A stretch of DNA of 64,000 bases from Escherichia coli (GTDB lineage: Bacteria > Pseudomonadota > Gammaproteobacteria > Enterobacterales > Enterobacteriaceae), in NCBI RefSeq assembly GCF_003334385.1, contig NZ_QOWN01000012.1; one strand, given 5' to 3'. Under the pieces are notes generated by a model that was given only the letters and a program-made list of their open reading frames with translations, was not told the origin of the DNA and searched no databases. The position numbers and the translations under genes were made by a program. Every line of letters starts with the position of its first letter. Position 1 is the first letter of the stretch. Below are positions 60,499 through 63,341 of the stretch, one piece after another.

Positions 60499-60933
60499 CA
60501 GTGTTTCTCCTTTCGCCCGCCAGAGTAAAAAGCAACCGTTTACGTTAATGAAACTGTCTAAACACATGCTCGTGGAGTGCCAGTTTTTGCGAGGAAGGGG
60601 AGTTAGAGACAGGAATTGCGGAGGCAATCACATAATCGTGGTTAAACCACGAAAATGAGAAGAGAACCTGACAATGGAATTATCTGTAATTTTCTCATAT
60701 TGATATTTCATTAATCATTCTGGCATGTCGCACTCTCGCATTTAATCGTTTTTATCTGGATAGCGCTCTTTTGATCGGCAATGTTGAAATAATGAAAGCG
60801 GCATAGATTGAGGGGCAATAATTTGAACTCAGTCGCAAAATTATAATTAAAACGGTCATGCTACCTAATATATGCCCGTTTATTGCATCGCGAAATTTGA
60901 GAAGACATAACTCATTAAATGAAAGGGATGCAA

Positions 60934-62853
60934 ATGAATAAGTTTATTGCTGCTGAAGCTGCGGAATGTATAGGCTGTCATGCTTGTGAAATTGCCTGTG
61001 CGGTGGCACACAATCAAGAAAACTGGCCGCTGAGTCACAGTGACTTTCGACCGCGTATCCACGTTGTAGGGAAAGGCCAGGCTGCGAATCCGGTGGCCTG
61101 CCATCACTGCAACAATGCCCCTTGCGTTACGGCTTGTCCGGTTAATGCTCTGACTTTCCAGTCCGATAGCGTACAACTGGACGAGCAAAAATGTATTGGT
61201 TGTAAAAGATGCGCAATCGCTTGCCCCTTTGGCGTCGTTGAGATGGTCGATACGATTGCGCAGAAATGCGACCTTTGTAACCAGCGCAGTTCCGGCACGC
61301 AAGCCTGTATTGAAGTTTGCCCAACACAGGCGTTACGACTGATGGACGATAAAGGGTTGCAGCAGATAAAGGTGGCCCGCCAGCGCAAAACGGCAGCAGG
61401 AAAAGCGTCATCAGACGCTCAGCCATCTCGCAGTGCAGCGTTGCTCCCCGTTAACTCGCGTAAAGGCGCAGATAAAATTTCAGCGAGTGAACGGAAAACC
61501 CACTTTGGCGAAATATATTGCGGGCTGGATCCACAACAAGCGACTTATGAGAGTGACCGCTGTGTTTATTGTGCCGAAAAAGCTAACTGCAACTGGCATT
61601 GCCCGCTGCATAACGCTATTCCGGATTACATCCGTCTGGTACAGGAAGGAAAGATTATTGAAGCGGCAGAACTTTGCCACCAGACCAGTTCCTTACCAGA
61701 AATTTGCGGCAGGGTATGTCCACAGGACCGTCTTTGTGAAGGCGCATGTACTTTGAAAGATCACTCGGGCGCAGTCTCTATCGGTAATCTGGAACGCTAC
61801 ATCACCGATACCGCGCTGGCGATGGGCTGGCGTCCCGATGTCAGCAAAGTTGTTCCCCGTAGCGAAAAAGTGGCGGTGATTGGCGCTGGGCCTGCAGGGT
61901 TAGGGTGTGCTGATATTCTGGCGCGCGCAGGAGTTCAGGTCGATGTCTTTGATCGCCATCCAGAAATTGGCGGTATGCTGACTTTTGGCATTCCTCCTTT
62001 CAAACTCGATAAAACGGTATTAAGCCAGCGGCGAGAGATATTCACCGCAATGGGAATCGACTTTCATCTTAACTGTGAAATTGGCCGCGATATTACCTTT
62101 AGCGATTTAACTTCTGAATATGATGCAGTTTTCATCGGCGTGGGGACTTACGGGATGATGCGAGCAGATCTGCCGCATGAAGATGCGCCCGGTGTCATTC
62201 AGGCTCTACCGTTCCTGACTGCCCATACCCGCCAGCTCATGGGATTGCCGGAGTCTGAAGAGTATCCGCTGACGGACGTGGAAGGTAAGCGAGTCGTGGT
62301 ATTGGGCGGTGGCGATACGACAATGGATTGTTTGCGGACTTCCATCCGCCTCAATGCCGCCAGCGTGACCTGCGCGTATCGTCGTGATGAAGTCAGTATG
62401 CCGGGCTCGCGCAAAGAGGTGGTTAATGCGCGCGAGGAAGGTGTCGAGTTTCAGTTCAATGTTCAACCGCAATATATCGCTTGTGACGAAGATGGGCGTT
62501 TAACTGCGGTGGGCCTGATTCGTACCGCCATGGGTGAGCCGGGGCCGGATGGTCGCCGTCGTCCTCGTCCGGTAGCGGGTTCAGAGTTTGAATTGCCCGC
62601 CGATGTTCTGATTATGGCCTTTGGTTTCCAGGCGCATGCCATGCCGTGGTTGCAGGGCAGCGGAATTAAACTCGATAAATGGGGCCTGATTCAAACCGGT
62701 GACGTCGGGTATTTACCTACCCAGACGCATCTGAAAAAAGTCTTTGCTGGTGGTGATGCAGTTCATGGCGCGGATCTGGTTGTCACTGCAATGGCCGCAG
62801 GAAGGCAGGCGGCGCGCGATATGTTAACTCTGTTTGATACGAAGGCATCGTGA
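60934..62853 (+). CDS. ygfT: fused 4Fe-4S ferredoxin / FAD-NAD(P)-dependent oxidoreductase (glutamate synthase small-subunit-like)
   Basis: ORF 60919..62853; start at [22 protein letters not shown] (60934) with AGGGA 8 nt upstream; several Cys clusters of 4Fe-4S type, then dinucleotide-binding [11 protein letters not shown]; 639 aa. Confidence 0.85.
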
Positions 62854-63341
62854 TGAAATCGTTAATTATCGTTAATCCGGCTGACTGTATTGGCTGCCGT
62901 ACTTGTGAAGTAGCCTGTGTGGTCGCTCACCCTTCAGAACAGGAGTTGAATGCCGATGTCTTTTTACCCCGGCTGAAGGTACAGCGACTGGACAGCATCA
63001 GTGCGCCGGTGATGTGCCATCAGTGTGAAAACGCCCCTTGTGTTGGCGCTTGCCCCGTGGGGGCGCTGACGATGGGCGAGCAGGTGGTGCAGACCAATTC
63101 TGCCCGTTGTATTGGCTGTCAGAGTTGCGTCAGTGCGTGCCCGTTTGGAATGATCACCATTCAGTCGTTGCCGGGGGATACCCGACAACAAATTGTGAAA
63201 TGCGATCTCTGTGAACAGCGGGAAGAGGGGCCAGCCTGCGTTGAATCTTGCCCAACACAGGCGCTGCAGTTGCTTACTGAAAGAGAACTCAGGCGAGTCC
63301 GCCAGCAGCGTATTGTTGCCAGCGGTGAGAATCCTCTCTGA
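62853..63341 (+). CDS. ygfS: 4Fe-4S poly-ferredoxin-like electron-transfer protein
   Basis: ORF 62850..63341; ATG at 62853 overlaps the ygfT stop; four CxxCxxCxxxCP-type clusters; 162 aa. Confidence 0.8.

Follow-up and report, generated by a model that had tools for sequence, protein, structure and literature searches.

The E. coli protein YgfT, also called UacF, shares with its paralogue AegA (model NF009408) a HycB-like 4x[4Fe-4S] domain joined to a GltD-like module. According to papers citing Iwadate & Kato 2019, both proteins are implicated in the same phenotype: uric-acid degradation that depends on formate under anaerobic/microaerobic conditions needs aegA and ygfT, whose products are proposed to carry formate dehydrogenase electrons to NADP+ or urate; the RefSeq/NCBIfam name of YgfT follows that study. 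YgfT differs from AegA in lying inside a purine island with uacT, in its coupled partner YgfS and in its strong induction by uric acid, that of aegA being modest, while AegA-like proteins of other genera do have a ygfS-like partner. In addition, ygfT belongs to the YgeV iModulon together with xdhABC, ygeWXY, hyuA, ygfK, ssnA, ygfM, xdhD and uacT, and its expression is lowered in a ygeV mutant. The urate pathway requires four electrons, and XdhD-YgfM as well as YgfK+SsnA function with NAD(P)H in vitro.

Several other described systems share parts with this gene pair. YgfS and the N-terminal domain of YgfT have been grouped as paralogues with HydN and YsaA (Pinske 2018), and the 16-Cys pattern common to YgfS and YgfT residues 1-150 is also that of HycB/HydN/YsaA and of HycB3/HycB4 (7qv7). 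HycB of formate hydrogenlyase and HycB3/HycB4 of hydrogen-dependent CO2 reductase are docking and wire subunits for FdhF, whereas hydrogenase genes are not encoded alongside YgfS/YgfT. GltD (6s6s_G, 2vdc_G) aligns as a whole subunit with YgfT residues 176-631 (367 bits), and the NADPH-dependent GltD of Azospirillum shares its Cys clusters, the FAD motif GxGxxG and GGGDTxMDC...YRRD with the C-terminal 460 residues of YgfT. However, GltD lacks the four-cluster ferredoxin domain at the N-terminus of YgfT, and no GltB-type partner gene is present in about 43 kb around ygfT. Finally, the Fer4_20 + Pyr_redox_2 module of YgfT is found in NfnB/SudA, in the N-terminal half of DPD and in YgfK, which uses it in the same urate pathway. 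In DPD and YgfK it is accompanied by an FMN substrate-reducing domain and in NfnB by the partner NfnA; YgfT has no counterpart of either.

Gene organization of the ygfT-ygfS locus

The stretch of DNA analysed here (the window, 64,000 nucleotides) is E. coli chromosome: many E. coli chromosomes match its region 60400-63400 with 100% identity, and at least 80% of this region is present in 5181 of 5426 complete genomes. The genes and boundaries at its right-hand end are as follows.

59050-60498, minus strand: uacT (ygfU), urate/proton symporter, divergent to ygfT (open reading frame and RefSeq)
60499-60933: uacT-ygfT divergent control region, 435 bp, AT-rich
60934-62853, plus strand: ygfT (uacF), 639 aa, matching the RefSeq coordinates exactly
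62853-63341, plus strand: ygfS, 162 aa (open reading frame and RefSeq)
63348-63371, no strand assigned: G+C-rich hairpin in the convergent ygfS/ghxQ gap (terminator scan and sequence)
63377-64000, minus strand: ghxQ (ygfQ), guanine/hypoxanthine transporter, of which the window holds the 3' part only

Both ygfT and ygfS are genuine, conserved and annotated genes, and chance open reading frames are excluded. The coordinates that an earlier note on this DNA had given for the pair, the intergenic gap and the stop/start overlap are correct to the base against RefSeq, which likewise bears out its view that purine or urate permeases flank the pair, with uacT on one side and ghxQ on the other. The longest open reading frame of ygfT begins at 60919, yet the annotated start at 60934 is preceded by a Shine-Dalgarno sequence (AAGGGA, 6-11 nt upstream) and agrees with the N-termini of orthologues. 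The ygfT TGA (62851-62853) and the ygfS ATG (62853-62855) have one base, an A, in common, and this TGATG arrangement marks ygfS as translationally coupled to ygfT; an alternative GTG start of ygfS at 62850 would overlap ygfT by 4 nt. Downstream of ygfS, the hairpin has a 9-bp stem with 7 GC pairs and a T-rich tail next to it on the minus strand, and is likely a bidirectional terminator for ygfS and ghxQ.

Domain composition of YgfT and YgfS

YgfT matches the NCBIfam equivalog NF009451 over residues 1-639 of 639 with 1505.9 bits (cutoff 1154), and its RefSeq product name, "formate-dependent uric acid utilization protein", is that of the model. It stays under the cutoff of the AegA model NF009408 (953.9 bits; cutoff 1003), and AegA-labelled proteins of other genera are 56-58% identical to it. 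The fusion of a poly-ferredoxin domain to an oxidoreductase seen in the earlier note is borne out by Pfam and NCBIfam, with Fer4_11 and other 4Fe-4S families on residues 1-150, Fer4_20 on 188-298 (E-value 7e-37), Pyr_redox_2 on 312-623 and TIGR01318 (gltD_gamma_fam) on 171-635 (850.7 bits). Residues 1-129 hold 16 Cys in four CxxCxxCxxxC-type motifs, and HycB 7z0s_B matches residues 1-104 with 110 bits. The GltD-like module contains two [4Fe-4S] Cys motifs (C210/213/219/223 and C258/262/268/272), the FAD motif GxGxxG as GAGPAG at residue 317, and a second Rossmann motif, GGGDTTMDC...YRRD, that aligns with NADPH-dependent GltD. By these matches, YgfT is a HycB/HydN-like 4x[4Fe-4S] domain (1-150) fused to a GltD-like module (171-635) with 2x[4Fe-4S], FAD and a predicted NAD(P)H site. 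Judged from motif identity alone, YgfT would prefer NADPH over NADH, while the description of XdhD and YgfK as NADH-dependent (Li 2025) counts against an NADPH-specific reading.

YgfS matches 4Fe-4S families and nothing else in Pfam, contains 16 Cys in all, arranged as four CxxCxxCxxxC-type motifs, and is 46% identical to YgfT residues 1-129. Among PDB entries it is closest to the formate hydrogenlyase subunit HycB (7z0s_B; 113.6 bits) and to HycB3/HycB4 of hydrogen-dependent CO2 reductase (7qv7). For both YgfS and YgfT, the relatives of solved structure are unambiguous. Against the HydN model NF007658 (cutoff 260), YgfS reaches 137.1 bits and YgfT 121 bits, placing both as paralogues of HydN rather than as HydN itself. 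Its cysteine pattern and closest relatives identify YgfS as a 4x[4Fe-4S] HycB/HydN-like ferredoxin and a paralogue of the YgfT N-terminal domain, in keeping with the separate ferredoxin, starting across the ygfT stop, that the earlier note had described.

No FMN/DHO_dh or molybdopterin catalytic domain is found in YgfT with Pfam and NCBIfam, and the GltD-like match ends at residue 635 of 639. YgfT as a urate/dioxopurine reductase or as dihydropyrimidine dehydrogenase is thereby ruled out for want of a catalytic domain, and the presence of electron-transfer modules alone points to an electron-transfer role rather than to a urate-reducing enzyme. A canonical, already assigned enzyme subunit, which would have contradicted the earlier note, is not what was found: no gltB-like gene occurs in about 43 kb around ygfT or in 11 orthologous contexts, and YgfT as a true GltD subunit of glutamate synthase is ruled out by the missing GltB partner.

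The divergent control region

The region between uacT and ygfT has 39% GC compared with about 50% in its flanks, as expected from the AT-rich stretch noted earlier. A search of 58000-64000 against Rfam families at E<=0.1 gave no match, and thus no riboswitch or sRNA family. A scan of 60400-63500 gave no sigma-70 promoter-like site within 60499-60933; its lone sigma-70 match falls inside ygfT, below shuffle expectation. The region contains the following elements.

60530-60545, no strand assigned: PurR-box-like sequence AAGCAACCGTTTACGT, 13/16 matches to ACGCAAACGTTTGCGT
60567-60582, minus strand: candidate uacT sigma-54 promoter TGGCAC-N5-GAGCA, 9/11 consensus positions
60822-60840, plus strand: conserved element TTTGA-N7-CGCAAAA, about 100 to 82 nt before the ygfT ATG
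60871-60887, plus strand: probable non-canonical sigma-54 element of ygfT, TATGCCCGTTTATTGCA, the ChIP-seq site OS32

The scan for sigma-54 sites proposed in the earlier note yielded a plus-strand element with ChIP-seq support and a candidate for uacT. The ygfT element departs from the consensus in its -24 dinucleotide, which is TG and not GG; its -12 TTGCA is present. The sequence at 60871-60887 is identical to that of OS32, a weak sigma-54 ChIP-seq peak of low motif score (4.5) that was attributed to ygfT, the leader being 36 nt long (Bonocora 2015). The TTGCA and its placement relative to the ATG (-49 to -63) are kept in Citrobacter, Arsenophonus, Erwinia, S. diarizonae, Cedecea, Pantoea and Buttiauxella. 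On the other strand, a lone 9/11 match within 435 bp is not significant by itself, and uacT/ygfU is not in the text of the sigma-54 ChIP-seq table (Bonocora 2015). Minus-strand sigma-54-like sites with 8-11 of 11 positions face the divergent gene (uacT, fdhF or fused xdh) in 10/10 other-species loci from nine further genera. When the consensus TGGCAC-N5-TTGCW is scanned over the whole window with up to three mismatches, 301 matches are obtained against 339 expected; consensus matching alone is therefore uninformative, and reliance is placed on the ChIP-seq site and on conservation across genera.

Upstream of the sigma-54 element, E. coli, Citrobacter, K. aerogenes, S. diarizonae, Cedecea and Arsenophonus all have the pattern TTTGA-N7-CGCAAAA at a matching position, and TCGCAA occurs 13 times in nine intergenic regions against 1.7 expected. 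The element may be considered a candidate regulator site. It was ruled out as a general YgeV upstream activating sequence, since the sigma-54 promoters of xdhA, ygeW and ygfK have no TTTGA-N7-CGCAAA ahead of them. The PurR-box-like sequence has the candidate uacT promoter on one side and the ATG of uacT on the other. In PurR ChIP-chip, a bound region was attributed to ygfT-ygfS, with the listed box inside ygfT; this box, at 61211-61226, matches at 11/16 positions and is weaker than the one at 60530-60545. TGAGA/TCTCA inverted repeats are about 3.7-fold enriched in the control regions, occurring in just 4/9 species' regions; with so modest an enrichment and so narrow a spread, they were set aside as a common operator.

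Conserved neighbourhoods and the supply of reductant

A related-locus search with a single protein gave 12 loci, mainly from Escherichia and Citrobacter, plus GltD-only matches. The comparison set comprises 11 contexts from other genera, reached via contigs encoding relatives of the protein. Across these, the ygfT-ygfS pair is conserved in Enterobacterales beside purine genes, with the overlapping pair retained in nine contexts and purine genes co-located with ygfT in ten. The lack of co-conservation with purine catabolic genes that would have spoken against the earlier note is not seen, and its suggestion of a module that passes electrons to the anaerobic reduction of purines or urate agrees with the domains, the published genetics, the urate induction and the purine co-location. 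Its remark that the substrate was undefined is half outdated: the physiological pathway has been assigned and stands in the RefSeq/NCBIfam name, and the remark now bears on the direct electron donor and acceptor of YgfT and on the role of YgfS. The genes, the physiological role and the reported sigma-54/YgeV control are already known from the literature and RefSeq, and the idea is not new.

An FdhF-type formate dehydrogenase is encoded adjacent to, or in the same operon as, ygfT-ygfS in 6/11 other-genus contexts, and these FdhF proteins score 893-1049 bits against TIGR01591 (cutoff 666). In Erwinia and Pantoea, ygfT-ygfS-fdhF form an overlapping operon encoding a Cys140 FdhF, while in K. aerogenes, K. 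michiganensis, S. diarizonae and Cedecea the neighbour is a Sec140 (TGA) fdhF orthologue with 84% nucleotide identity to E. coli fdhF. In E. coli, fdhF is unlinked to ygfT-ygfS.

Taken together, we consider it somewhat better than even (about 0.55) that ygfT-ygfS encodes a cytoplasmic Fe-S/flavin module of the anaerobic reductive urate pathway and forms, within a soluble formate:NAD(P)+ oxidoreductase, the diaphorase half. Formate would be oxidised by FdhF (FDH-H), docked on a HycB-like ferredoxin that could be YgfS, the YgfT N-terminal domain or both. Electrons would then pass through up to eight [4Fe-4S] clusters and enter the GltD-like module, where its own two [4Fe-4S] clusters and its FAD would hand them to NAD(P)+, and the resulting NAD(P)H would supply XdhD-YgfM, converting urate to 2,8-dioxopurine, and YgfK, for dearomatisation. 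Transcription would be driven by sigma-54 and the activator YgeV and induced by uric acid, jointly with uacT and the other genes of the cluster. That FdhF, YgfS and YgfT are in physical contact, that electrons run in this direction and that NAD(P)+ accepts them is what we infer. The closeness of YgfS and the YgfT N-terminal domain to the FdhF-carrying HycB and HycB3/HycB4 counts for FdhF as the partner, and the fdhF synteny provides an independent, non-E. coli argument for a formate dehydrogenase of this type.

Other results count against parts of this model. In two-hybrid assays AegA was negative with FdhF and positive with HycB, HydN and YsaA, and aegA deletion left the dye-linked FDH-H activity unchanged (Pinske 2018), both of which speak against FdhF. 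That the reconstituted urate pathway runs on NADH without YgfT, and that E. coli breaks down urate in rich medium without added formate, weigh against a formate:NAD(P)+ oxidoreductase. So do the clean absence of ygfS in Citrobacter sp. R56 and Arsenophonus, which both have ygfT, and the absence of fdhF within 8-10 kb in 5/11 contexts.

Electrons might instead bypass free NAD(P)H, with YgfT-YgfS taking them from FdhF, or from NAD(P)H via the FAD, and feeding them at low potential directly into Fe-S clusters of XdhD and/or YgfK. The CO2/formate couple lies at about -420 mV and the urate/xanthine-type couple at about -360 mV, so that such a wire would make urate reduction exergonic. A chain of ten clusters exceeds the needs of a simple diaphorase, and an XDH-type Mo enzyme is encoded directly divergent to ygfT-ygfS in Mixta, Erwinia, Pantoea, Buttiauxella and Serratia. 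Yet XdhD-YgfM and YgfK have FAD/NAD(P)H entry sites of their own, NADH alone suffices in vitro, the NAD(P)H motif of YgfT is fully conserved and AegA serves the same process from an unlinked locus, making this route unlikely. Electron bifurcation or confurcation, in which the GltD/NfnB-like FAD of YgfT would, in the manner of NfnAB, couple NAD(P)H with electrons derived from formate or of ferredoxin type and so drive an unfavourable reduction, appears quite improbable. The possibility has been raised for AegA (Vanoni 2021), and homologues of the C-terminal module include NfnB (4ylf_B, 5jca_L, about 292 bits), in which bifurcation takes place at the FAD, as well as NfnB-like StnC and NfnABC subunits (8oh5_C, 9n5u_A). 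However, no NfnA-like second flavoprotein or second nucleotide site is present in or beside the operon, GltD and DPD employ the same module without bifurcation, and no experimental hint points that way. Also improbable is a second physiological FDH-H complex alongside formate hydrogenlyase, made of FdhF, YgfS and YgfT, with the two HycB-like four-cluster units arranged as a HycB3/HycB4-like wire and an NfnB-like flavin that bifurcates or confurcates, in which formate and NAD(P)H would jointly drive the thermodynamically demanding urate reduction by XdhD and YgfK.

It is highly improbable that the purine link is incidental and that YgfT-YgfS acts under anaerobic conditions as an NAD(P)H:ferredoxin-type oxidoreductase of general use, for instance in redox balance or oxidative-stress tolerance. 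The YgeV iModulon is nearly silent in most conditions and peaks under ethanol stress in baeR/cpxR mutants, Cedecea has ygfTS and fdhF with purine genes absent within 10 kb, and the HydN/YsaA/AegA family is promiscuous in two-hybrid interactions (Pinske 2018), all of which would fit such a general role. Against it stand the purine genes seen in nearly all other-genus contexts, the urate induction of ygfT and its co-regulation with the urate pathway, and the published mutant phenotype, which according to citing papers concerns urate degradation.

While the fdhF synteny leaves the classification of the locus as already known unchanged, the conservation of the pair beside purine genes across Enterobacterales and the frequent FdhF neighbour are added here. 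The three-gene operon of Erwinia and Pantoea, with its selenium-free FdhF, would be handy for reconstituting the FdhF partnership. Anaerobic urate degradation by gut bacteria influences host urate levels and gout, and the urate catabolic enzymes were elucidated only in 2023-2025. For the supply of reductant to these enzymes, and especially for the stimulation by formate, ygfT-ygfS together with aegA is the named candidate link that would carry reductant from formate to the urate pathway.

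Gene arrangement and protein architecture

Gene coordinates were obtained by mapping the RefSeq annotation of an identical strain onto the window. The window comes from the E. coli chromosome. Many E. coli genomes match segment 60400-63400 at 100% identity, and at least 80% of it is present in 5181 of 5426 complete genomes. The arrangement described in the earlier note, including the overlap and the AT-rich divergent region, was confirmed in every element by this mapping and by GC count, with the ygfT TGA and ygfS ATG having one base in common (TGATG).

59050-60498, minus strand: uacT (ygfU), urate/proton symporter
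60499-60933: uacT/ygfT intergenic region, 435 bp, 39% GC versus ~50% around it
60530-60545: PurR-like box, 13/16 matches, just upstream of uacT
60567-60582, minus strand: candidate near-consensus sigma-54 element TGGCAC-N5-GAGCA, facing uacT
60822-60840: conserved element TTTGA-N7-CGCAAAA, shared by six genera, ~100 nt before the ATG of ygfT
60871-60887, plus strand: sigma-54 site OS32, TATGCCCGTTTATTGCA, a ChIP-seq sequence located in the window
60934-62853, plus strand: ygfT (uacF), 639 aa
62853-63341, plus strand: ygfS, 162 aa
from 63377, minus strand: ghxQ (ygfQ), guanine/hypoxanthine transporter

The RefSeq annotation of the idi-uacT gap (58855-59048), directly downstream of uacT, contains two very small proteins, YqfH (23 aa) and YqfG (41 aa). 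Further away, prfB (55583-56681) is annotated as a two-piece joined CDS with a programmed +1 frameshift, its long ORF beginning only at 55800. Natural IS1 insertions occur in E. coli WP2-S18-ESBL-08 and 200112 (L026:1825-2522 and L027:482-1179, in local coordinates of the orthologous loci); one cuts ygfT into two pseudogene fragments, while the other is intergenic between uacT and ygfT.

YgfT carries 16 cysteines in four CxxCxxCxxxC-type motifs within residues 1-150, followed by a GltD family match at residues 171-635 (TIGR01318, 850.7 bits) comprising the Pfam domains Fer4_20 (188-298) and Pyr_redox_2 (312-623). Residues 176-631 align with the whole length of the NADPH-glutamate synthase beta subunit (6s6s_G, 367 bits), retaining both [4Fe-4S] cysteine motifs, the GxGxxG of the FAD site and the nucleotide motif GGGDTxMDC...YRRD, while NfnB, StnC-like proteins and dihydropyrimidine dehydrogenase are weaker solved-structure relatives. 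The separate YgfS, with exactly 16 cysteines arranged in four motifs, shares 46% identity with the N-domain of YgfT. For both, the best solved relatives are HycB (7z0s_B), the FdhF-carrying subunit of formate hydrogenlyase, and HycB3/HycB4 of hydrogen-dependent CO2 reductase (7qv7). Both miss the HydN equivalog cutoff; they are HydN paralogues, a relationship also shown by Pinske et al. 2018. YgfT is predicted to bind FAD and six [4Fe-4S] clusters, and YgfS four [4Fe-4S] clusters. NCBIfam and Pfam searches of YgfT detected no substrate-converting domain, whether FMN/DHO_dh, molybdopterin or other; as only electron-transfer modules are present, YgfT cannot be the urate reductase itself, and this candidate was ruled out.

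Purine and formate dehydrogenase genes around ygfT

YgfT-type proteins of 60-73% identity are widespread in Enterobacterales. Among them, the K. aerogenes, S. diarizonae, Cedecea and Mixta proteins score above the YgfT cutoff; for the Erwinia, Pantoea and Arsenophonus proteins the YgfT model is the best fit, yet they fall under its cutoff. Eleven contexts were compared outside Escherichia and Citrobacter, and in nine of them ygfS follows ygfT with an overlapping stop and start. Arsenophonus (L016:11950-12518) and Citrobacter sp. R56 (L004:11911-11975) lack ygfS without remnant while ygfT is intact, so the separate ferredoxin is dispensable in some lineages. In Buttiauxella sp. A111 (L012:9902-12414) and Serratia fonticola (L022:8001-10486), proteins 58% identical to YgfT, nearer the level of its E. 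coli paralogue AegA, also have a downstream ygfS-like ferredoxin and lie divergent from a fused XDH/ygeV/ygeW cluster, so the AegA/YgfT distinction blurs outside E. coli. A solitary AegA in Brenneria (L021) lies two genes away from a xanthine/uracil-family permease.

Ten of the eleven contexts have purine genes next to ygfT, among them ssnA, ygfK, ygeV, ygeWXY, yqeB/yqeC and genes for a uacT-like permease and a fused XDH-type enzyme. In other Enterobacterales, a ~1070-aa XDH-type protein with fused Mo and FAD domains, plus a small 2Fe-2S subunit, replaces the XdhD-YgfM arrangement of E. coli (L014:1881-5596, L017:5944-9632, L020, L015, L022, L023); the fused protein falls under the XdhA equivalog cutoff (453 vs 780 bits).

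Six of the eleven contexts have a neighbouring gene for an FdhF-type formate dehydrogenase (TIGR01591, 893-1049 bits, cutoff 666), placed in at least three distinct arrangements. Erwinia sp. BNK-24-b (L017:10001-14590) and Pantoea sp. BAV 3049 (L020:10001-14602) have a ygfT-ygfS-fdhF operon with overlapping stops and starts, encoding a selenium-free FdhF (Cys140) and divergent from the fused XDH-type enzyme and its 2Fe-2S subunit, mocA, ygeV and ygeWXY. In K. aerogenes, K. michiganensis and S. diarizonae, an fdhF-permease pair is divergent from ygfTS, while in Cedecea ygfTS is directly divergent from fdhF. In these four species fdhF carries an in-frame TGA at codon 140, within the motif CCARV-U-HGPSV.

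Selenocysteine fdhF orthologues by the uacT/ygfT locus
L014:5781-7928: K. aerogenes
L018:2538-4685: S. diarizonae
L019:7293-9440: Cedecea lapagei
L023:5731-7878: K. michiganensis

The K. aerogenes gene shares 84% DNA identity with E. coli fdhF, which is itself unlinked to the uacT/ygfT locus. This synteny offers an independent argument for FdhF as the YgfT/YgfS partner.

The uacT-ygfT control region

The earlier note proposed scanning this region for sigma-54 sites. Consensus matches were not enriched over the window. The ChIP-seq site OS32, which has a low motif score and is assigned to ygfT (36-nt leader), was located in it. Its -12 TTGCA and position are kept in Citrobacter, Arsenophonus, Erwinia, S. 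diarizonae, Cedecea, Pantoea and Buttiauxella, and the -24 GG is cut to a single G in all the compared genera. This probable sigma-54 promoter of ygfT is conserved but non-canonical. The uacT-facing candidate is not listed in the text of the ChIP-seq table; its position is conserved across genera, and its counterparts (8-11 of 11) point at the divergent gene in 10/10 other-species loci scanned. Neither a sigma-70 consensus site nor an Rfam family was found at the control region.

The TTTGA-N7-CGCAAAA element, similar to an FNR/CRP-type half-site, is missing from the other YgeV-iModulon promoters. The box given for ygfT-ygfS in a PurR ChIP-chip study falls within ygfT (61211-61226) and matches at 11/16 positions, fewer than the box at uacT. 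An intergenic perfect 17-bp palindrome, TCGTGGTT-T-AACCACGA (60636-60652), is seen in E. coli only, and a CRP-like GTGA-N6-TCAC lies at a comparable place in S. diarizonae, Cedecea and Arsenophonus. Glucose is reported to repress urate degradation (Li 2025).

A proposed route for electrons from formate

The earlier note's proposal of an electron-transfer module for anaerobic purine or urate reduction is supported, though this interpretation was already in print in 2019 and is part of present-day annotation. YgfT passes the NF009451 equivalog "formate-dependent uric acid utilization protein YgfT" (1505.9 bits, cutoff 1154), which is also its RefSeq product name and derives from Iwadate & Kato 2019 (J Bacteriol 201:e00573-18). 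As described in papers citing that study, aegA, ygfT (renamed uacF) and ygeV are involved in formate-dependent urate degradation, the first two under anaerobic/microaerobic conditions, and AegA/YgfT were proposed to pass the electrons of formate dehydrogenase on to NADP+ or straight to urate. Urate strongly induces ygfT and ygfK, and aegA just modestly (Liu et al.). The YgeV iModulon comprises ygfT, uacT, xdhABC, ygeWXY, hyuA, ygfK, ssnA, ygfM and xdhD, and the iModulon study cites lower expression of ygfT when ygeV is mutated. The reductive pathway was reconstituted by Li et al. 2025, with neither YgfT nor YgfS among the proteins assayed: XdhD-YgfM with NADH converts urate to 2,8-dioxopurine, YgfK+SsnA with NAD(P)H perform dearomatisation and ring opening, and HyuA, YgeW, YgeY and YgeX follow. 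Our literature searches found no functional study of ygfS and no newer biochemistry on uacF.

The best-supported model is a three-stage route. FdhF would oxidise formate and dock on YgfS, the YgfT N-domain or both, as HycB-like units; electrons would pass along the [4Fe-4S] chain to the GltD-like clusters and FAD, reducing NAD(P)+; and XdhD-YgfM and YgfK would consume the NAD(P)H. Of this, the cofactor motifs, homologies, regulation and synteny are shown, and the physical complex, direction of flow and acceptor are inferred. Against its simple form, the pathway works in vitro on NADH without YgfT, ygfS is lost in some lineages, and fdhF linkage is not universal. AegA, moreover, showed no two-hybrid interaction with FdhF and bound the FDH-H-associated ferredoxins HycB, HydN and YsaA, a pattern compatible with YgfS or another free ferredoxin acting as adaptor. 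Among the rivals, YgfT-YgfS could be wired directly to XdhD/YgfK, or could perform an Nfn-like bifurcation, as previously raised for AegA in the literature. The association with purine genes could also be incidental; the phylogenetic check asked for in the earlier note, with purine genes adjacent in 10/11 contexts, comes out in favour of the purine link and not against it.
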